Below, in pieces: positions 11,997 to 24,836 of a DNA stretch of 32,000 bases. The notes under the pieces are model-generated. The model was not told the DNA's origin, searched no databases, and worked only from the letters and a program-made list of their open reading frames with translations. Every line of letters begins with the position of its first letter. Positions within the stretch are counted from its first letter, which is position 1. Source of the DNA: Candidatus Heimdallarchaeota archaeon (GTDB lineage Archaea; Asgardarchaeota; Heimdallarchaeia; JABLTI01); NCBI GenBank assembly GCA_030614005.1, contig JAUWKS010000036.1, positions 1 to 32,000 on the forward strand, in the 5' to 3' direction. The position numbers and the translations under genes were made by a program.

Positions 11997-13047
11997 CTAA
12001 GCTTCCGAATAAATAATATCAGATGAAATTTCTTGTATTGTTTTACAAGCAGTCATTTTCATTGCCTTTTTGAGTGTTTTTTGGAAATGGTCCATAATTC
12101 TGTAGACGCCATCTATACCACCACCAACTGCAGCTCTGATAACATCTCTTCCAATCAAAACACCATCTGCACCCAGTGCGAGCATCTTTAAAACATCATA
12201 ACCAGTACGAATGCCACCATCAACTAGTATTGTTGTTTTACCTTTCAATTCTGTTACAACTTTAGGTAGAACTTCTGCTGTACCGGGTGAGTGATCTAAA
12301 ACCCGGCCACCATGATTTGAAACAACAATAACATCAGCACCTGCTTCAACTGCTTTTTTAGCATCCTCTGCATACATCAATCCTTTCACAATAAATGGTA
12401 ATTTTGTTGCTTTTTTCAACTCTTTCAAATCATCAATTGTTTTATTGAAAACATGTTTTCCATGTTTTGCCATAATTAATGACCCACAACCATCTACATC
12501 AATACCTACAGCTATTGCTTTTGCTTTTTCTGCCTTCTTATAAAAATCATTTATTACTCTTTGCTCCCGTGGTTTCACTATTTTTATCCCCCAACCATCA
12601 GCTTCAGCAATTGCATCAATACCAAATGAATTTTCTAGTGAATATGTATAGGTATCACCTCTAAAACCAATTGTTCCTGCTTTTTTACATCCTAGAACTA
12701 TTGCTCTGCAGAGCTCTTTTTCTGTGATAGCATTATCCCCACCAAAACTATTTACACCTGTAACGCTAGCAGCCATTATTGGCATAGATATTTTTTTCCC
12801 CAGAAAAGTAGTTTCAGTGGTTGGTTCAAACTGTTTACCAACAACCCTCATTAGTAATTTCAATTTAACTAATGCCTTTACATTATTGGTAAAGCTAGCA
12901 CCTGATCCTGCTCCGCCCATACTAAGATATCTACCATAACTTTGTCCCTGACATAGTCAGGGATGGATTTCCATCGCATTCCCGATAAACGCCACAATAA
13001 CCTTTCATTTTTTCTTTAGCATTTCTTCTATCTTCTTCTACTGACAC
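11997..13047 (-). pseudogene. FMN-dependent alpha-hydroxy-acid oxidase/dehydrogenase carrying a +1 frameshift near 12959
   Basis: The main ORF 11997..12920 has SNHGGR, DGGIRTGYDVLKMLALGA and KGLM. The upstream GTG at 13047 (SD GGTGG) gives MSVEEDRRNAKEKMKGYCGVYRECDGNPS. Removing one base joins it to (R)LCQGQSYGRYLSMGGAGSG, restoring the Cys-containing N-terminus I recall from this subfamily. May be a sequencing error. Confidence 0.75.
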
Positions 13048-15452: not shown

Positions 15453-16286
15453 TTACTTTTTTTGCTCTTTTATTTTGTTTCTTACTGCTATTAACTCATC
15501 CATAAATTCATTGAGTGAAAGATCAATATTCTTAGCTAGACTTGTAAGAGTTGTAACAATAAGATAAAGCAAATCCTGATCTTTTTTCTTGTTCTTGGCT
15601 TCTTCTTGTTCGGATATTTTGAGCAAAATTTCACCAATTCTGATGGCAATAGTCTTATTCTTGAAAGGAGTTTTGCTTAAAGCTTGAATTACGATTACCT
15701 GAAATTCTTTTCGTTTTGTTAATTCTAACTGATCAAGTATAAGTTGTAATCCAGCGAGATTTCCAGTATAAGTTAATTCTTGGATTGCTTTTCCGCGTAT
15801 TTTACCAGCAGTTTCAGGATTTTTAATGAGAGCGATTAACCATTGAACACTTGTATTATCACCTAGTTTACCTAACAATTCAAGTGATTTAATTCGCACA
15901 TCAAATACTTCTCCTTTGTCTTCAACGGTACTTGTTAAAATGGAAGGAAGATCCGCACCTTTAATGTTCAATAATGCTTCACTTACATGATGAGTCATTG
16001 TGAGATCCTTATCTATAATGCTCTGTCTAAAGGATGCTATTAATGCCCAGGTAGCTCGGGGGTTGCCTAATTTTCCGAGCAAATCAGCAGAAAATCGTCT
16101 TACTTCACTATTAGAATCATATTGTAAAGAATGGATAAGTGGATCTATTGCTTTCTCTTGCCCCAAACGATAAAGCTTACTGGCTGCACCGAAGCGCTTA
16201 TTCCAGTCTGAATCGGTTTTCAAAATAGTAATCAGAGGTTCTAAATTTTCTTTAATTGGGGAATCATCTTCGGGTTGATTGCTCAT
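15453..16286 (-). CDS. HEAT-repeat (PBS lyase-like) protein
   Basis: Repeats of D..VR..AA..LG.LG type (KRFGAASKLYRLG..AIDPLI; VRRFSADLLGKLGN; VRIKSLELLGKLGD). Confidence 0.88.
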   Translation of the reverse strand: MSNQPEDDSPIKENLEPLITILKTDSDWNKRFGAASKLYRLGQEKAIDPLIHSLQYDSNSEVRRFSADLLGKLGNPRATWALIASFRQSIIDKDLTMTHHVSEALLNIKGADLPSILTSTVEDKGEVFDVRIKSLELLGKLGDNTSVQWLIALIKNPETAGKIRGKAIQELTYTGNLAGLQLILDQLELTKRKEFQVIVIQALSKTPFKNKTIAIRIGEILLKISEQEEAKNKKKDQDLLYLIVTTLTSLAKNIDLSLNEFMDELIAVRNKIKEQKK

Positions 16287-16317
16287 TTGTATAAACTCCT
16301 GAGTGAGTTAATTTTTT

Positions 16318-17415
16318 TTATTCAAAACCTCTAGCAGATAACCATTGAGCAGTTTTCCCTACAATTGCTAGGGGCACAGATCTTAATGCTTCGAGGTTTA
16401 TTGCTCCTACAAGGAACATAGCAGTCTTTAGTTCTTGAATAAAAAGAGTGATGCTTTCTATTAATTGTATTTCGGTTCCGTCCTTTAGTATTTGAGCAAT
16501 AGGCAATGCCATGCCAACGAGATTTGCTTTTAGAGATAATGCTTTGGCAGCTTCTAACCCATTTCTAATTCCACCAGAAGCAATTATTTCCACATTTTCT
16601 GAAAGCTTAGAAATTTCTAAAGTACTAACAGCGGTTGATAAACCCCAGTTTCCAAATAATTCGCCTATTTTTTGATTAGTAAGCTTCATTTGTTGTTGAG
16701 CACGAACGGCTTCTATTTTTGCCCAACTCGTTCCTCCTGCACCTGCCACATCAATTGCTTGGACACCTGCTTCAATAAGTGCATTACCATCTTCAATTGC
16801 AATGCCAGAACCAACCTCTTTGGCAATTATAGGGCAATCAAGCTCTTTACTCAAAGTAGCTATTTTAGGTAATAATTTATCGAAATTTCTATCCCCTTCG
16901 GGTTGGACTACTTCTTGTAAAGGATTAAGATGTAAAATAAGTGCATCAGCTTTTATCATTTCAACAACTTTTTTGATTTGCTTGAATGTAACATTATAGT
17001 TTAGCTGCACTGCACCAATATTCGCAGCAATAAATGCTGTAGGGGCAACTTCTCGCACAACAGAAAAAGTATCTACTAAAGAAGGGTCCAATAAGGCTGC
17101 ACGTTGACTTCCTACACCCATGCCGATTTGAAGTTTCTCAGCCACTCGAGCGATTTTTTCATTCATACTCTTTGCTTCGTGTACCCCACCTGTCATTGAT
17201 GAAAGAAAGATTGGAGATGAGAAATTATGCCCAAGAAATTTACTTTCAATACTAATCTTGTCAAAGTTTATCTCTGGAACAGCACGAGGGACAAAAAGGA
17301 TATCCTCAAAACCATTGCTAACAGACATTTCAATATCATATTTATCGCTACAGCAAATTTCAAGATGGTCATCTTTTCGTTGTTCGATAAGCTGTTTTTC
17401 ATTTTTCTTAACCAT
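16318..17415 (-). CDS. fni: Type 2 isopentenyl-diphosphate delta-isomerase (FMN-dependent IDI-2)
   Basis: RKDDHL, SMTGG, GVGSQRA, HLNPLQEVVQPEGD, KEVGSG, AGAGGTSW..IE..R, ASGGIR. ATG at 17415 has AGGTG SD. Confidence 0.96.
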   Translation of the reverse strand: MVKKNEKQLIEQRKDDHLEICCSDKYDIEMSVSNGFEDILFVPRAVPEINFDKISIESKFLGHNFSSPIFLSSMTGGVHEAKSMNEKIARVAEKLQIGMGVGSQRAALLDPSLVDTFSVVREVAPTAFIAANIGAVQLNYNVTFKQIKKVVEMIKADALILHLNPLQEVVQPEGDRNFDKLLPKIATLSKELDCPIIAKEVGSGIAIEDGNALIEAGVQAIDVAGAGGTSWAKIEAVRAQQQMKLTNQKIGELFGNWGLSTAVSTLEISKLSENVEIIASGGIRNGLEAAKALSLKANLVGMALPIAQILKDGTEIQLIESITLFIQELKTAMFLVGAINLEALRSVPLAIVGKTAQWLSARGFE

Positions 17416-17500
17416 TGAGCACACCTAAAACAAATGAAACATAATCTGACAGTACGCTAATACTTATTAAATTATTATTATCAAACAGAAATTGGTTGGG

Positions 17501-18280
17501 TTAAAGGGAATCCAACATCTCATTTTCATCTTTGTATCCTAATTTAATAGCTATTGTGTGGAGGGCTTCTGCAACAGCAGCCTGCGTCAATTTGAATTCC
17601 TCATTTTCTAGGGCATTTGTTAAAAACTCGACAGATTTCTCATCCGGTTTTTTAGCTATTAATTCCGTAATATGACTCTTAACTTCATCCGACTTTTCTT
17701 CTTGAAAACAGATTAAAAGACTATCTAAATCAATACTTGATTTACTTTTTAGTAAGGCAATTGCAGCCTGTACACGAACTTCTTCAGACGAATCCATTTT
17801 GAGATGTTTAAAAATAATTTCACCGAAATCTTCTGAACCGTTTTTACCAAACGCTTCAATAACTGCTTCACGAACCCAATGCGACTCTTCGTTATCTAAT
17901 ATGGGAATCATCAATTTAACAGCCGAAGAATTCCCAATTTCCCCGAGAGCTTGAGCGATTGCTCTTCGAACAATGGGTGAATTTTCCTCGGCAATGGCTT
18001 TACCAAATTCTTTCGGAATTGCAATACCATCAGCTAATTTCGCAAGAGAACGAGCAGCAGCAGCACGGACATCTTCGGATTCATCTCCTTTCAAAGCTGT
18101 GAGTAAAGGATCAATTACAGTGTCGTCACCGATATCTCCAAGACTTTTCGCTGCCTCCTCACGAGTGGCTACATCCCAATTAACTAACTCTTCTATAAAA
18201 TCACTGACGTTCTTTTTGGTTGTACCCAAAGTTCGTTCCCTCAAGTATCTAATAAATGCATTTCCTTCAATATCCTTCAA
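17501..18280 (-). CDS. HEAT-repeat (PBS lyase-like) protein
   Basis: At least 5 repeats (TREEAAKSLGDIG, VRAAAARSLAKL, VRRAIAQALGEIG, VREAVIEAFGK, VRVQAAIALLK); TTG start. Confidence 0.9.
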   Translation of the reverse strand: MKDIEGNAFIRYLRERTLGTTKKNVSDFIEELVNWDVATREEAAKSLGDIGDDTVIDPLLTALKGDESEDVRAAAARSLAKLADGIAIPKEFGKAIAEENSPIVRRAIAQALGEIGNSSAVKLMIPILDNEESHWVREAVIEAFGKNGSEDFGEIIFKHLKMDSSEEVRVQAAIALLKSKSSIDLDSLLICFQEEKSDEVKSHITELIAKKPDEKSVEFLTNALENEEFKLTQAAVAEALHTIAIKLGYKDENEMLDSL

Positions 18281-18351
18281 ATAGCTTTCCCTTTAAGCAA
18301 AAGGGAGGAAAAAATTCAAGATATTATTCCTCAAAACGAGAAGAACAATAA

Positions 18352-19209
18352 CTAAATTGCAGATAAAATTAATACTACAATAACTAAAATGAGACTAACT
18401 AAAGAAACACCTAATGAAATAAATAAGATAATTCTTTGGAGCCTAAATTCTTTCATCCATCTCATACGAAATTTATTGAAATCATCTTTGTTGATGACAG
18501 TTTTGTTCATCTCTTCAAGAGCAGAACTTAGTGATTCAAGGTCAGAACGAGTTTTTGCCAAACTTTTCTTGTGAACTTTATCTGCTTCAACAAACTCTTT
18601 TTTGGTGAGTAATGTTTTATTTGCAAGAGTTTCTAAAGATTGATTTACAGATAATGCCATCCTCATAGCAGTATTTTCAGCTATTTTCTCAGCACTTTCA
18701 TGATCTTGAACATGGCTCGTTAACAAATCAATAATTTCATTTGGATTGGTCATTATTTTAAATGGCACTTCAAATGATTTGCCGTCAAATCCAACTCTAA
18801 AGAATTTAGCTTTGTAATCCTTTTGATCCCGACTTTTAGCAAAAGCGTTGCCATCATTAACCATTGCAACAGCTTCTGGTAGCAATGCTTGATAGATTTG
18901 TTGAGTAGCAATATCTGTACCTGACATGAATACAGACATGCCTGGGTGTGTATGGTACCAACCTAAAATGACTTCTCCTTTTCCTCTCTCTTCTAATCGC
19001 TCTAGTATTTTAAATTGCATCATGTTATCAAATGAAACAAAAGTAGGATTTGATTCAGCTACTGCAAAAACTGCTTCAGTTATCAGAAGTTTTTCTTTCA
19101 TTATTTTACCGATAAGATATCCACCTATTTCTCTTTCTGTATTTGTTGCAGTCCAATCAATTATCTTTGCATATGCTAACGGAGAAATCTCTACAGTAAT
19201 TTTAGTCAT
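18352..19209 (-). CDS. JAB1/MPN+ (JAMM) metallo-isopeptidase with coiled coil and C-terminal TM helix
   Basis: REIGGYLIG (catalytic Glu) and GWYHTHPGMSVFMSGTD (H-x-H-x7-S-x2-D). ISPLA..KI and TQQIYQ..AVAMV resemble Rpn11/CSN5. C-terminus IILFISLGVSLVSLILVIVVLILSAI-stop. Confidence 0.9.
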   Translation of the reverse strand: MTKITVEISPLAYAKIIDWTATNTEREIGGYLIGKIMKEKLLITEAVFAVAESNPTFVSFDNMMQFKILERLEERGKGEVILGWYHTHPGMSVFMSGTDIATQQIYQALLPEAVAMVNDGNAFAKSRDQKDYKAKFFRVGFDGKSFEVPFKIMTNPNEIIDLLTSHVQDHESAEKIAENTAMRMALSVNQSLETLANKTLLTKKEFVEADKVHKKSLAKTRSDLESLSSALEEMNKTVINKDDFNKFRMRWMKEFRLQRIILFISLGVSLVSLILVIVVLILSAI

Positions 19210-19297
19210 TTTAATCGAGAGATTATTAATTTCAATTTTTAAAAACCTTTGCAGTTTTATCAGAACTGGTTTATCAATATAGTATAATTGCTCTTCT

Positions 19298-20503
19298 TTA
19301 CAGTAATAAGATCAATGTAGTAATAATTCCAGCAACTACAATTGTTCCAAGAATTGATAAGACTATTTTTAATGTGTTTTTGTTTTTAGTCTTATAACAT
19401 GCTTCCGGACAAATTTCTATACATGTGAAGCACGAGATACATCCATTATAATCGATTTTTGGAATAAATTGACCTTTCTTGTTTTTTGTAATAGTGATTA
19501 CTTTTTCTGGGCAAGCTCTTTCACAATTCAGACAACCTGTACAACCTTCAACGTATTTAGGCACTTCAAATATTATATTCGAAAACCTAGCAAAAGGGAT
19601 TCTTCCTAAAAATGCTACTTTAGGAAGTTTGAATTTTCTTTTGTGATCTTCAATTCTCTCACCAACAATTTCGATATCCTCTAATTCCATAACCCCTAAT
19701 CCTTGTTCAGCAGCGAACCTTATTGTGGGCACTATCTTAGGATCTGAACCCATAATTCTAAACGCTACTGAATCCAAAGCTACAGCATCTGCGCTTGCTA
19801 GAATAAGATTCATCTCAACTGGACTTCCTCCCGCTCCAGGTCCCATCCCTTCTAATGCAATTATTGCATCCATTACATTTAGCTTTATCCTTGTTTTCTC
19901 AAAAGCATAAATATCAACTAAGCATTGAGCAAAGCCATTAAAAGTTGCTCCAAGAGAATGTATCCTAGTTTTATCTGCTCCACAAATTGTTCCATATAAA
20001 TTTTTGATAGCTCCCGTATAGAGCGCTAATCCATGAGTTTTCATTTTGGGAATGTTGATAACTGCTTTAGATTCTAAAAATTCTGTAGAAATATTGGCTT
20101 CCTTTAGCTTCTTGCCATTTATTTCAACCTTTGTTGGTCCATGTTCCTCTAAACTTCTAACTTGTATTTTTTCGCTTTTTTCTCCTATCTCCAGATAACC
20201 ACTTCTTTTAATAGCTGCTCTTGTTCCACCTGTTTGTCCTGCACCACTTGAATCACCAATTAATACCTTCTTGCCTAATTCTAACACCATGTTTGCCAGA
20301 GTTTCTACAACCCGAGGATCAGTTCGAATCTTTGCTTTTACCTCTTCATTATTAGGTGCTGAGAGCAAATTGGGTTTGAGTAAAACATCATCTGAATGGT
20401 CAATAAATTGCTCTAATCCACCAAGCAATTCAACAGCTCTTTTGACGGCACCCCGCACGTCGTCCTTTTCTACTTTTACAATAGAAACTTTGACTTTACT
20501 CAT
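19298..20503 (-). CDS. DUF362 protein fused to a 2x[4Fe-4S] ferredoxin, with C-terminal TM helix
   Basis: VLLKPNLL, IGDSSG, INIPKMKTH..YTGAIKNLYG, DAIIALEG.GP; CTGCLNCERACP and CISCFTCIEICP; hydrophobic C-terminus. ATG at 20503 preferred. Confidence 0.88.
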   Translation of the reverse strand: MSKVKVSIVKVEKDDVRGAVKRAVELLGGLEQFIDHSDDVLLKPNLLSAPNNEEVKAKIRTDPRVVETLANMVLELGKKVLIGDSSGAGQTGGTRAAIKRSGYLEIGEKSEKIQVRSLEEHGPTKVEINGKKLKEANISTEFLESKAVINIPKMKTHGLALYTGAIKNLYGTICGADKTRIHSLGATFNGFAQCLVDIYAFEKTRIKLNVMDAIIALEGMGPGAGGSPVEMNLILASADAVALDSVAFRIMGSDPKIVPTIRFAAEQGLGVMELEDIEIVGERIEDHKRKFKLPKVAFLGRIPFARFSNIIFEVPKYVEGCTGCLNCERACPEKVITITKNKKGQFIPKIDYNGCISCFTCIEICPEACYKTKNKNTLKIVLSILGTIVVAGIITTLILLL

Positions 20504-20615
20504 TGGTAATCGGATGACATTATATGAAAATTCAATTAAATCTTTTCTCATTTATTAATTGAAATTTGTGCATCTTATTACAAAAATGAAAGAAAAAAAG
20601 ATAGAGATATGGAAA

Positions 20616-21854
20616 TCAAACATATATTTTACATCGATAGCAGTACCAGCGATTGTATTGTTTGATAAATGATAATTTGCTTCCACATTTTGGGCAATGC
20701 CCTTTTCGCTTCTTCTTTTTTGATTCCGATTTAACTTCTTTGGGTTGCTGTACTTTTTCCTTTACAGGTTCTAGCTCTGGTTCAGTTTCACTTAAAATTT
20801 CAGTAATGCTTTCTTCGTCATTATTTCCTTCAATAATGTGCATTGTATCGAGCTTTGATCTGTCAATAGTTTCATAGCTAGCATTCGCATCTGGTTGTGT
20901 TTGTGAATCGAAATCATCCATAGGAGGGACAGGAATCATTAAATCTAATTCAGCTGAAATGTCATCTACTGGTTGACTATAAGCTTCTGTTGAGTCAACT
21001 ACAGTTAACATTTCTTTGTCAATAGATTCAATTTTGTCTTTCAAAGAAGTGATTTCCTGATTTGTACTATCTATCTGAAATTTCTTTGTTTCAACAACTA
21101 ACATTCGTTCCTCTAATGCTGTCATAATTTCAGATAAACTGCTAATTTTCTCATTCAGCATGCTTAATGTTGAAATGAGCTGATTCATATGTTCTTTTTG
21201 TGGGACATCTGTTTCAATTTTTGGGGGCATAGGCAAGGGTTTTACTGTGAATGGTCGAGAATTATTATCTAATTCTTCACCGTCAGCCCTAGCCCCATTA
21301 CGAGGGAAACCTTCTTTTTCCAGAAACATTTTTCCCATCATATTGAAAGCTTCGCTGATATTTTCTCCAGTCAAAGCTGACGTATGCAGATAAGTAGCAT
21401 CGATGCCTTTCATTTTCTTAATCTTCCCAAGGAGTTTATCAATATCTTCTTGTTTCACTTTTATTTTATCAGTAAGATCATGTTTGTTCCCTAGGATAAT
21501 AAAAATCTTCAAAAAGCCCCCTGAATGCTCAACTGCCTCTTCTACCCATTGGTCAAGTTTTTCTAGTGTTTCCGGTGAAGTGAGGTCACATACTAGGAAT
21601 CCACATTTGCATCCACTATAGAATGATGAGCGAACATGTTTGTACATTGCTTGACCAGCAAGGTCCCATATTTGGAAGTGAACTTTGTTTTCACCTAGAA
21701 CTATTGCTTTTGATGCAAAATCTGCACCAATGGTCTTAATGTATTCACTCTTAAATCCAACGCCCATAAACTGGGATCGAATGCTTGTTTTTCCTACTGA
21801 ACCTTCACCCATTAGAACAATTTTGAACACGAATTCACGTTTTATTTCTGACAA
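20616..21854 (-). CDS. Rab-like Ras-superfamily small GTPase with long C-terminal extension (coiled coil, acidic linker, Zn ribbon)
   Basis: G1 GEGSVGKT, G2 YIKTIGADF, G3 WDLAGQ, G4 NKHD, G5 TSALTG. Heptad region about aa 225-290; KKKKRK-GHCPKC..WYCYRC at the C-terminus. Confidence 0.92.
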   Translation of the reverse strand: MSEIKREFVFKIVLMGEGSVGKTSIRSQFMGVGFKSEYIKTIGADFASKAIVLGENKVHFQIWDLAGQAMYKHVRSSFYSGCKCGFLVCDLTSPETLEKLDQWVEEAVEHSGGFLKIFIILGNKHDLTDKIKVKQEDIDKLLGKIKKMKGIDATYLHTSALTGENISEAFNMMGKMFLEKEGFPRNGARADGEELDNNSRPFTVKPLPMPPKIETDVPQKEHMNQLISTLSMLNEKISSLSEIMTALEERMLVVETKKFQIDSTNQEITSLKDKIESIDKEMLTVVDSTEAYSQPVDDISAELDLMIPVPPMDDFDSQTQPDANASYETIDRSKLDTMHIIEGNNDEESITEILSETEPELEPVKEKVQQPKEVKSESKKKKRKGHCPKCGSKLSFIKQYNRWYCYRCKIYV

Positions 21855-22089
21855 TTTTCTTCAGGGCTCCTTCTTTTTTCTAGTTTGCACAAATATTACT
21901 TTGTTAAGTTAATAAAGATTCGATTTATACCAATTAAGTGTTTGCTAATATGTAAATGGTATCATGTTTACTTAAACTTCTGTCTTAGGCAAACATTAAA
22001 ATTATATGTCCTCTTTTGTAAGATTTATTAAACTGTTAGTCGTATATTATCTTTAAGAATAATTCATTTACATTTTGGAGTAATAACAA

Positions 22090-22935
22090 TTGTTTAGACG
22101 GCAATCTCCTAAAAAGAAGGATACCACTCTCTGGTCTGAATACCCGGATTATAATCCAATAAATAATGTCGAAGAGAAACCACTCTATGATGAAGCACGT
22201 GTAACTGATGAACATCGTGTTCTTGGTCAAATCATTCGAGAGAATTGGAATCTTGTTCATCCACTTGCAAGAGACTATATGTTATCTGCTGCTGCTGAAT
22301 GGCGAAAGTTTATTATTGAACACGAAATGACCCCAACGGGTTCAAGTGATCAAAATGAAGTTATTGATATTATGAAGCAAGATTTTGAAACAAAAATGCA
22401 AAGAATTCTGTTGGAGAAAGATGCAGAGATTGAAAAAATAAAAATGGACATTGCTGAGAGTTTCAAAGAAGAATTAGAACGAAAGGATGAAGAATTCGAA
22501 AATTATAAAATGATGGCTGAATCTGTCCGAACAAATTTTGATGATACCAAAATTTCTCAATCAAATCTTCAGAGTGATCTTTCAGCTCGTGACAATCGTA
22601 TTGCTGTTTTAGAGAAATTAGTTGAAGATTTGCGCGATCAATGCAAATCAAAGGAAATTGAGGCAATGAATGTTCAAACAGGTATTAGTAAGAATTTTCA
22701 ACAACAAATCAGTGAAATGACTACTGAGTTATATAATCGTCAAGAGCAAATAGAGAAATTACGTGGAGTGCTTTCTAAAGCTAAAGATCAACTTGTTCAT
22801 TTGAAAGAAAAGAATGGCGAGTATATCCTATCCAGGAAGCAATTGGATGCACGCATAGAGTCTTTGGAACGTATGGTTAACGAAAGAGATCATAAGCTCA
22901 AACAAGTTGTAAAATCAATTGAAAATTTAGAATAA
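22090..22935 (+). CDS. Long coiled-coil protein with an N-terminal globular segment
   Basis: About 190 aa of E/K/Q/L-rich heptads after an approximately 85-aa non-coiled N-terminus. TTG start with GGAG 9 nt upstream. Confidence 0.8.
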   Translation: MFRRQSPKKKDTTLWSEYPDYNPINNVEEKPLYDEARVTDEHRVLGQIIRENWNLVHPLARDYMLSAAAEWRKFIIEHEMTPTGSSDQNEVIDIMKQDFETKMQRILLEKDAEIEKIKMDIAESFKEELERKDEEFENYKMMAESVRTNFDDTKISQSNLQSDLSARDNRIAVLEKLVEDLRDQCKSKEIEAMNVQTGISKNFQQQISEMTTELYNRQEQIEKLRGVLSKAKDQLVHLKEKNGEYILSRKQLDARIESLERMVNERDHKLKQVVKSIENLE

Positions 22936-22960: not shown

Positions 22961-23890
22961 CTAAAGAGCACAACAGGAATTAATTCTTTTTATTTCTAAA
23001 CCAAATTTATTTTTCGCATATTCCAGTGTTCTAGTTTTGGGTATTGCAATTCTATTTATTCCTGATCGAATAGCAATTTCTTCATATTGTGGAATGCGAA
23101 CTCTCATACATCCCAAGGATTGCTCGATAGTTGGACTATTCATTCGCACATAGATCATTGCTTTAGCCATTATTTCAGGTTTTACTGTAGAGACATTTTC
23201 CATTTTAGTACCTTTTGTAGGAATCAACCCAAGAAAAACAATTGTTTCTGGATTAAACTCTAATACAGTTTTTAATGCTTCAAAATTACCTTTCTCTGAA
23301 CCATAATACAACCCCAAACATATATGTGGTACAACTTTTAATCCAGCATCTACAAGGAATTTATAGGATCTAATATAATCTTGCCCTTTTTTTCCGTTCA
23401 TTAAGATTTCATTTATTACATCAGTATCTGTAATTAAATCAAACGAAACAACATCTACACCAATTTCATATAGTACTTTTGCTTGTTCTTTTTCCACTAA
23501 TCCCGCATGAACATTTATCTGTAAACTAGTCTCTTTTTTTATTTCAGCAATAGAATTTAGAAAATCACCTAGAGGCACCTGGCTTTCTTCATTATACCCA
23601 CCACTAATAAGCATACCATTACCACCTTTGCTCTCTAATTTTTTTGCAAAGTCAACTAAATTTTTTGGCTGAGTTATAGATTTCATACTTTTTAGATAGT
23701 GCTTATTACAATAAAGACAATTTTGAGCACAGTAATTTCCAGTAACACTTATTGACGGGAATTTTTCTCCTAGATAATGAACTTTCAAAACTTTACCAAA
23801 AGTATGCCAGCTGCTCTCTCTAGCCTCTTTCATCAGAGAAGTCAAATCTTGATCTGATAACCGTAAAATTTCTTTTATTGTATATGCCAT
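22961..23890 (-). CDS. Radical SAM protein, biotin synthase-related archaeal family (COG1856-like)
   Basis: SISVTGNYCAQNCLYC, GMLISGG, INVHAGLV, VVPHICLGL, SLGCMR. Confidence 0.88.
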   Translation of the reverse strand: MAYTIKEILRLSDQDLTSLMKEARESSWHTFGKVLKVHYLGEKFPSISVTGNYCAQNCLYCNKHYLKSMKSITQPKNLVDFAKKLESKGGNGMLISGGYNEESQVPLGDFLNSIAEIKKETSLQINVHAGLVEKEQAKVLYEIGVDVVSFDLITDTDVINEILMNGKKGQDYIRSYKFLVDAGLKVVPHICLGLYYGSEKGNFEALKTVLEFNPETIVFLGLIPTKGTKMENVSTVKPEIMAKAMIYVRMNSPTIEQSLGCMRVRIPQYEEIAIRSGINRIAIPKTRTLEYAKNKFGLEIKRINSCCAL

Positions 23891-24083
23891 CTATTTTACC
23901 TTTTGGAAATCACTTTTGAGAGCTTCACTATACACTAATTTAATCTTTAGATGATGGAGCTTTTTTTACTTTTCTTCGTTTTTATTAACTGCCTATTTAC
24001 AAAGGTTTTAATTGGTTTTTGTCATATATTTCTATATAAATTATATAGTTAAGACATACATTAGTAGTAGGAGCAAAACAAAT

Positions 24084-24836
24084 TTGGGTTACTTTAAAGG
24101 TCTCTTTACGTCATTAGGAATTGCATTACCAAGCTTTCTCTTCATTCATATATATCTTCAAGAAATGTGGTTACCAAACTTTTTCACCGATTTAGTTGGA
24201 GGAAACTGGGAACTACTGCTTCAAGTTTGTGAGACTACAATCTTAGAACCTATTACCATATTTTTCGTTGCTCCAGAAGTGTTGAGAATTTTATTTGCAT
24301 TTGTACCTTGGGTAGTTGCCGCTTTCGTAGCTAGTTTCTTCTTCCGTAAGAAACATGCCGCGAGATTAGGATTAGCGACTACAATTTCATTATTCTTTAT
24401 TGCGGAGCTAGTTTATTATCTAATAATACAAAATACAGTATTAACGGTTGACACTTTAACACTACCAAATCCTTTGTATGGCTTTCTTGTCATTCAAGCA
24501 ACAGTAACTATAGTTGGATTGCTAGCAGGGTTGATTAGTCCCTTTAAAAAGGAAGCTAGCTTAGATTATAAACCTCCTCCTGCTTCACAGAGCAGAAGAC
24601 CATCTAGACCTTCTGATCCAACTCCATTGGTTACACATGAACCAGTTGATTTTGATAGTCCCATTTACATGCCAGATGAAAGCCCAAGTAGGGATGAATA
24701 CATTGAAAGGCATCACACTCCTGTGAGTCAAAGACCATCCTCTGCCCAAGCTCCTTGTGAATACTGTGGATCGTTCTTGGACCCTGATACAGAATTTTGC
24801 AGTGTTTGTGGAAATCGAGCTTCAGGTGAATATTAA
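24084..24836 (+). CDS. Membrane protein (about 4 TM) with Pro/Ser-rich tail and C-terminal zinc ribbon
   Basis: Hydrophobic segments, PPPASQSRRPSRPSDPTP linker, CEYC..CSVC. TTG at 24084 (AGGAG 10 nt upstream) preferred over track start 24012. Confidence 0.78.
   Translation: MGYFKGLFTSLGIALPSFLFIHIYLQEMWLPNFFTDLVGGNWELLLQVCETTILEPITIFFVAPEVLRILFAFVPWVVAAFVASFFFRKKHAARLGLATTISLFFIAELVYYLIIQNTVLTVDTLTLPNPLYGFLVIQATVTIVGLLAGLISPFKKEASLDYKPPPASQSRRPSRPSDPTPLVTHEPVDFDSPIYMPDESPSRDEYIERHHTPVSQRPSSAQAPCEYCGSFLDPDTEFCSVCGNRASGEY

Follow-up and report, generated by a model that had tools for sequence, protein, structure and literature searches.

Asgard genomes encode dozens of Ras/Rab-like GTPases. 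Rab-like members without lipid anchors have been described, and these GTPases have been hard to match to partners because their genes are generally not found in operons with regulators (PMC10933270). One solved example, the Thorarchaeota Rab 7EZB, has been reported to have no prenylation motif (Tran et al. 2024, PMC10933270), and one conserved Asgard operon is known in which the gene of a Rab-like GTPase is accompanied by those of a LAMTOR1-like Roadblock protein and a protein with a DENN domain (Liu et al., bioRxiv 10.1101/2020.10.19.343400). Here, we analyze a 7.5-kb stretch (positions 15453 to 22935) of a 32,000-nucleotide window taken from contig C30 of G000, a Heimdallarchaeia metagenome-assembled genome (MAG; 3.6 Mb, 90% complete). 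In it, the gene of a Rab-like GTPase lies head to head with that of a coiled-coil protein (CC281), next to genes for two HEAT-repeat proteins (HEAT1 and HEAT2), the isomerase Fni, a JAMM metalloprotease and a DUF362 ferredoxin protein. The reading that we favor, with a probability of roughly 0.7, is that the stretch is a family-level syntenic patchwork rather than one system, and that it holds one real two-gene unit, the GTPase and the coiled-coil gene.

The comparison of gene neighborhoods drew on a sample of 80 genomes of the class and 300 of the phylum, referred to below by family (f1 is the family of the window and f2 its sister). The pair is real and conserved across families. Both genes are divergently oriented in every f1 genome examined, with a gap of ~220 to 250 bp, and in f2 the coiled-coil gene precedes that of the GTPase in tandem in eight genomes of five genera (G012, G016, G024, G026, G030, G042, G064, and G069), with spacings that range from a 1-nt overlap to a 33-bp gap. 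All three f6 genomes again have the tandem arrangement, the genes overlapping by 4 nt, and G300 (family f30) is tandem as well; on independent metagenome contigs, the coiled-coil gene is followed at 2 to 4 bp by that of a Ras-family or orthologous GTPase. Adjacency was retained in several families despite rearrangement. A paralogous tandem pair is present in G000 itself (C81:16475-18069, minus strand), where a 245-aa coiled-coil protein is followed, after a 23-bp gap, by a 277-aa Rab-like GTPase; the former carries the key motifs of the family (TLW..P.Y and W..LHPL..D). With ~14 to 21 Ras-like genes per 3.6 Mb in G000, any one gene would have such a neighbor at a few hundred bases or less in ~1% of cases, and because of this background rate, and because the same GTPase subfamily is always involved, chance adjacency is unlikely. 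A literature search found no description of the CC281/GTPase pair, absence there being no proof.

The distribution of both genes is in agreement with their linkage. Using a profile of the N-terminal domain (N-domain) of CC281, we detected the coiled-coil family in all f1 (10/10), f4 (11/11), f5 (1/1) and f6 (3/3) genomes and in 27 of 28 from f2, and in none of those from f3 (0/21) and f7 (0/2). Only three matches were obtained among ~220 genomes of other Asgard families, and a search of 1.84 billion representative proteins yielded 38 clusters (E ≤ 0.001), with the domain nearly always N-terminal. Judged by this profile, the family is nearly confined to Heimdallarchaeia. As for the GTPase, two f4 genomes contained a stand-out match with the C-terminal extension (E of 1e-64 to 1e-66, open reading frames [ORFs] of 284 to 321 aa, all others at 1e-45 or weaker), and none was found in the two f3 genomes and the one f7 genome checked, where the top matches were only ~190 to 200 aa long. 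The tailed GTPase was seen where the coiled-coil family is present and not where that family was not found. A tree of all 14 Ras-like paralogues of G000 and the coiled-coil-adjacent GTPases of other families placed all the latter in one clade (support of 91/80) together with two G000 paralogues, one of which is the GTPase of the C81 pair, and left the other 11 G000 paralogues outside. The partner rod and the tail helix of the GTPase vary in parallel, f2 having the shortest and f6 the longest of each while f30 and f1 are intermediate, although such parallel lengths in four lineages are only a hint.

The adjacency could also be inherited gene order without functional coupling, with the coiled-coil protein having a separate role, such as that of a cytoskeletal or chromosome-associated filament. 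The wider region shows loose synteny between f1 and f2, each of which has 5 to 10 kb between the coiled-coil gene and fni, the pair is unlinked in f4, and the database similarities of CC281 are only generic coiled-coil matches such as SMC, all of which would fit this explanation. However, the two genes remained neighbors through an inversion (they are divergent in f1 but tandem elsewhere), whereas those separating the pair from fni were all replaced, and the 4-nt overlaps and gaps of 1 to 4 bp suggest joint transcription and translation. The paralogous C81 pair has the same arrangement, and the tailed GTPase tracks the presence of the coiled-coil family. We consider mere inherited order unlikely.

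The stretch as a whole behaved differently from the pair. The order of the seven genes was kept only in f1 (two genera), where collinearity spans ~15 kb and includes equally L7Ae, S28e, a 214-aa ORF, LipS1, a Zn-ribbon membrane protein, Tsr3, and an Obg-like GTPase. Because these flanking housekeeping genes are just as collinear, order within f1 is uninformative on function. Opposite-strand genes separate JAMM from DUF362 in five f1 genomes (G003, G004, G008, G009, and G011), the insert being a methyltransferase-like gene of ~230 aa and sometimes more (8.7 kb in G009), and in G003 a plus-strand gene of 359 aa also separates HEAT2 from JAMM. With such inserts, these f1 genomes do not keep an uninterrupted same-strand run fit for one transcript. 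In G016 and G026, closed genomes of f2, the respective positions are 0.11 and 0.29 Mb for DUF362, 1.41 and 1.52 Mb for JAMM, and 2.42 and 2.67 Mb for the coiled-coil gene, the GTPase gene and fni, so that the three loci are mutually more than 1 Mb apart. No seven-gene module conserved beyond the collinear level was found, the genes being scattered in f2 to f6. The preliminary description of this DNA had proposed a previously undescribed Asgard membrane-associated system and had named scattering of the genes in related genomes as the result that would speak against it. Such scattering is what we observed for five of the seven genes; what stands of the proposal is the link between the GTPase and the coiled-coil protein, kept across families. 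The set of a solenoid, a GTPase, a coiled coil and a deubiquitinase, which resembled a proto-endomembrane sorting kit, appears to be ordinary family-level synteny, a caution that component classes alone are no basis for inferring eukaryote-like modules.

A narrower version of the same idea is a membrane-associated system of the HEAT proteins, the two membrane-anchored proteins, the GTPase and the coiled coil that was assembled recently and exists in f1 only. Gene order is retained in both f1 genera, two of the proteins are tail-anchored, full-length HEAT1 and the Zn-ribbon tail of the GTPase were found only in f1, and a second JAMM gene (contig C9) also follows a Ras-family GTPase gene in this family. 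Yet the housekeeping flanks are as collinear as the candidate genes, the set is broken by opposite-strand genes in the five f1 genomes mentioned above, outside f1 its components are either dispersed or were not found, and in its middle sits fni, a housekeeping gene of lipid synthesis. The adjacency on C9 is likewise confined to f1. This makes an f1-only system quite improbable.

Several points weigh against a syntenic patchwork with a single two-gene unit. In f4, the coiled-coil and tailed GTPase genes are both present but not linked, and a distance of 1.5 to 2.5 kb that holds other genes separates them in f5 and on one metagenome contig. The C81 coiled-coil protein scores weakly against the N-domain profile (13.7 bits), and the GTPase clade is a polytomy, so that its coiled-coil-adjacent members may not be strict orthologues. 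The order kept across two genera at 45 to 65% protein identity may reflect an f1-lineage-specific functional association of the ordered genes, and the f1-only parts (HEAT1 and the Zn-ribbon tail of the GTPase) could be read as gained together. In addition, many of the genomes sampled are incomplete MAGs.

The individual genes outside the pair are best described one by one. fni is a near-universal, single-copy housekeeping gene of isoprenoid lipid synthesis, since among the 80 genomes sampled 73 of the 74 with a match had a single one. No HEAT gene, HEAT2 included, was seen beside it outside f1. In G021 (f3), fni directly adjoins L7Ae-S28e with no HEAT gene in between, and therefore HEAT1 is an f1 insertion. 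Full-length HEAT1 orthologues were present in all 11 f1 genomes and none was found elsewhere, where matches were repeat-level only and in proteins of other sizes. In our reading, fni gained two lineage-specific HEAT-repeat neighbors in f1. Both HEAT proteins are, by their domain matches (only HEAT_2 and HEAT_PBS repeats), generic PBS-type solenoids; identity as a phycobilin lyase or NblB (CpcE, CpcF, NblB) was not supported, with scores of 26 to 51 bits against NCBIfam equivalog cutoffs of 220 to 330.

The JAMM protein consists of a catalytic domain (residues 5 to 160), a helical stalk and a transmembrane (TM) segment (255 to 285). Its metal-binding motif is intact (E...HTHP-x7-S-x2-D, with EIGG... 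and HTHPGMSVFMSGTD legible in the protein), and the closest solved relative of the domain is the Rpn11-like protein of Caldiarchaeum, 6FJU, an enzyme that processes ubiquitin (E of 2e-30, residues 5 to 162). A ubiquitin gene (contig C123) and three E2-like genes are encoded elsewhere in G000, all on contigs other than that of JAMM. Because of the intact motif, this closest relative and these genes, we take the protein to be most likely a membrane-anchored, cytosol-facing isopeptidase, which would strip ubiquitin, or a modifier resembling it, off proteins on the cytoplasmic side of the membrane. The f2 and f5 homologues are alike in length, stalk and tail anchor but have other neighbors, and in ten genomes of these two families none of the other six genes was found within ~10 kb of them. 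JAMM-TM is a class-wide gene, linked to the other six only in f1. No description of a tail-anchored Asgard JAMM came up in a literature search, where absence is no proof. In f2, the gene is preceded by that of a conserved ~345-aa protein without a Pfam match (L033:10323-11360, minus; L032:10281-11333, minus; L031:8546-9595, plus), in which a kinase-like GDFHQSNL...IDP motif can be seen by eye and which might be the true partner of this JAMM. The second JAMM of G000 (C9:8560-10269, minus strand; locus L121) has 329 aa, a JAB domain and a TRAP_beta-like C-terminal domain, and directly follows a 210-aa Ras-family GTPase. A general JAMM-GTPase linkage was rejected, as the C9 gene lies beside a Ras-family GTPase gene only in f1.

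In the DUF362 protein, two CxxCxxCxxxCP motifs are legible and a TM segment spans residues 392 to 417; it is predicted to be a membrane-anchored iron-sulfur redox protein. The true start is probably Met17 (401 aa) because orthologue alignments begin only at residues 10 to 21; the orthologues listed in full begin with MSKVAIV. Only f1 and f2 yielded full-length DUF362-Fer4-TM orthologues (41 to 48% identity in f2), with none found in f4 to f7 at E ≤ 1e-20. In closed genomes, ~1.2 to 2.4 Mb separate the f2 gene from those of JAMM and the GTPase, and a HAD hydrolase gene precedes it at four of the five f2 loci.

Turning to the proteins of the pair, CC281 has an N-domain of ~70 residues followed by two long helices, and homologues in other families have the N-domain in common with it, not the coiled coil. 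The domain is marked by the motifs TLW..YPDY, EH, and W.L.HPL.RDY, with a His-Pro that is invariant (alignment A1) and with Trp, His and Asp near-invariant. An AlphaFold2 model (predicted local distance difference test [pLDDT] of 82.8) is all helical, a small N-terminal helical part leading into the two long helices. No Pfam or NCBIfam family was found for CC281 beyond the generic matches, a Foldseek comparison of the model with the PDB gave no match at E ≤ 0.001, and the best score of an ESM Atlas feature search with residues 1 to 100 (0.76) was below the meaningful level. A search for related loci with CC281 alone retrieved two near relatives and one weak coiled-coil match. Two further observations concern this family. 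Six f4 genomes (G018, G014, G057, G060, G063, and G022; L103 to L108) encode a second, far longer paralogue with the N-domain (421 to 744 aa), and neither f4 copy adjoins a GTPase gene. Also, a short contig in an f2 MAG (G034:C164:1-744, L099) carries a CC281 homologue that is 57% identical, typical of genus g1, and this contig is probably misbinned.

The GTPase displays all five G motifs with the catalytic Gln (GEGSVGKT, TIGADF, WDLAGQ, GNKHD, and TSALTG). Among solved structures, the Thorarchaeota Rab 7EZB is the best match (E of 2e-29), followed by eukaryotic Rabs. The preliminary description had called the protein extended, and its AlphaFold2 model does show, beyond the G domain (residues 1 to 180), one helix (219 to 288), an acidic, disordered linker modeled with low confidence and a confidently modeled C4 ribbon (~384 to 412). 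The C terminus comprises a polybasic patch and then the C4 Zn ribbon, CPKC-x14-CYRC. No C-terminal Cys prenylation motif (CC, CxC, or CaaX) is present, as the protein ends in ...CYRCKIYV inside the ribbon. An amphipathic C-terminal helix is common to the coiled-coil-adjacent GTPases of every family; orthologues in f2, f6 and f30 end in this helix without Cys, and the Zn-ribbon tail past the first helix was found only in f1. In the f6 orthologues (L053:2862-3755, plus; L054:7803-8711, minus; L058:1124-2017, minus) DLAGQ is replaced by DLAGH at the catalytic position of switch II, suggesting that intrinsic hydrolysis is changed or absent in f6.

Ribbons closely resembling that of the GTPase (C-x2-C-x14-C-x2-C, with FI.QY and YC inside; 20616 to 20700 in the window) were located on three other G000 contigs (Table 1), and from these sequences the ribbon looks like a shared docking module confined to f1. 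Assignment of the GTPase ribbon to Ribosomal_S27a was dropped, since the score of 20.5 bits was under the cutoff of 22.3. Another multi-TM protein ending in a Zn ribbon is encoded in the window 1 kb from CC281 (24012 to 24836, plus strand). A polytopic f2 protein with N- and C-terminal ribbons is encoded convergently to the GTPase (L114:6540-7829, minus; L115:2465-3790, plus; L116:6486-7769, minus). Orthology of these two membrane proteins was not supported by hhalign, which paired the generic ribbon only (81.8% probability, 40 columns) and left the TM parts unaligned.

From gene coupling and architecture, we infer that the GTPase and CC281 would form a stable or nucleotide-dependent complex. 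The C-terminal amphipathic helix of the GTPase could pack on the long coiled coil of CC281, and the N-domain of the latter might read or control the nucleotide state of the G domain or else dock the complex to a target. The polybasic patch and Zn ribbon of the f1 GTPase could be a stand-in for a lipid anchor or a docking module. The CC281 family may thus represent an unrecognized class of dedicated partner (regulator or effector) of one Heimdallarchaeia subfamily of Rab-like GTPases, acting by means of a heteromeric coiled coil with the C-terminal helix of the GTPase, with the f1 Zn ribbon tying the switch into a membrane-proximal network; this is a tentative proposal, possible rather than probable. 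We consider it very improbable that CC281 acts as a vesicle tether of the golgin or Rab-effector type, which the GTPase would recruit to an internal membrane: the nearest solved relatives of the GTPase are Rabs, the partner is a long two-segment helical rod and the f1 polybasic patch and Zn ribbon could bind membrane, but CC281 has no TM segment, no Pfam family (so no GRIP or other known targeting domain) and no fold match to any tether, the partner is short (226 to 357 aa), the GTPase ends outside f1 in a helix without a membrane-binding feature, and we know of no internal membranes established for this lineage. A membrane-trafficking/ubiquitin module of the seven genes is not supported as a system by the analysis.

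The features of the stretch and the additional ribbons are collected in Table 1. Genes were called from an ORF listing together with Pfam and NCBIfam scans, and TM segments were assigned by hydropathy. This bore out the seven genes and domains as they had been named earlier, the single strand shared by the genes around fni (six on the minus strand) with the coiled-coil gene head to head on the plus strand, and the membrane anchors claimed for the JAMM and Fe-S proteins, each of which has a C-terminal hydrophobic tail; these are their single TM segments, and the other five proteins have none. The gaps from HEAT1 to the GTPase gene are 31, 76, 71, 88 and 64 bp (the preliminary description gave 32 to 113 bp), and the corrected start of DUF362 would widen its gap to 112 bp. 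The TATA-like boxes noted in that description as a reason to doubt a single operon proved uninformative, because at 34% G+C such hexamers are too common to place promoters. Two other genes of the window may be mentioned. A radical SAM gene (22961 to 23890, minus strand) separates those of CC281 and the Zn-ribbon membrane protein, and its product scores as a LipS1-family lipoyl synthase (266 bits, cutoff of 230), and the 307-aa product of 11997 to 12920 (minus strand) is a flavin mononucleotide (FMN)-dependent dehydrogenase whose Pfam profile was matched in two stretches, the better one covering only profile positions 205 to 348.

Table 1. Genes and other features of the GTPase/coiled-coil region in the window, and similar Zn ribbons on other contigs of G000
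Feature	Position	Strand	Details
HEAT1	15453-16286	-	277 aa, between fni and L7Ae; HEAT_2 64 bits
fni, type 2 isopentenyl-diphosphate isomerase	16318-17424	-	TIGR02151 401.6 bits, cutoff 281.3
HEAT2, PBS-lyase-type HEAT-repeat protein	17501-18280	-	259 aa; HEAT_2 115 bits, HEAT_PBS 55.9 bits
JAMM/MPN+ metalloprotease, Rpn11-like, tail-anchored	18352-19209	-	285 aa; Pfam JAB 63.9 bits, cutoff 22.5
DUF362 + Fer4 dicluster (2x[4Fe-4S]), tail-anchored	19298-20551	-	417 aa; DUF362 171 bits and Fer4_7
Rab-like small GTPase	20616-21854	-	412 aa; Pfam Ras 127.7 bits
Divergent intergenic region, GTPase/CC281	21855-22089	.	235 bp; common to both genes
CC281, coiled-coil protein	22090-22935	+	281 aa; without Pfam family
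Ribbon at C terminus of paralogous GTPase	C63:3665-5323	-	552 aa
Ribbon at C terminus of polytopic membrane protein	C17:303-1658	+	451 aa
Internal ribbon	C71:76528-78708	-	726-aa protein; repeat-rich N terminus, Roadblock-like tail by eye only

When compared to described systems, the component classes match those of eukaryotic pairs of a Rab and a coiled-coil effector or tether such as the golgins, that is, a Rab-like switch and an elongated coiled coil. However, no sequence or fold similarity of CC281 to any such effector was found, and it has no membrane anchor and no known Rab-binding domain. The JAMM protein resembles the Rpn11-like JAMM of the archaeal ubiquitination operon of Caldiarchaeum subterraneum (6FJU and 6FJV) in its domain and metal-binding motif, and differs in the added helical stalk and C-terminal TM anchor and in lying outside any ubiquitin/E1/E2 operon. 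The window GTPase is like the Thorarchaeota Rab (7EZB) in its G domain, with all G boxes and no prenylation motif, but it has in addition a conserved C-terminal helix and, in f1, the linker, polybasic patch and Zn ribbon. Unlike the Asgard GTPases described in PMC10933270, it has a dedicated neighboring partner gene, and a pair held together through rearrangement, duplication and several families offers two concrete proteins for joint testing. A further parallel is with the Roadblock/Rab-like/DENN operon, which likewise keeps a candidate regulator beside a Rab-like GTPase in different Asgard lineages. The seven genes and their flanks gave no Pfam match to Roadblock, longin or DENN families, and the partner here is instead a coiled coil with an unrecognized N-domain, from a family nearly restricted to Heimdallarchaeia. 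On the genomic evidence, the GTPase and CC281 are another Asgard small-GTPase/partner gene pair, one with a previously unrecognized N-domain in the partner.

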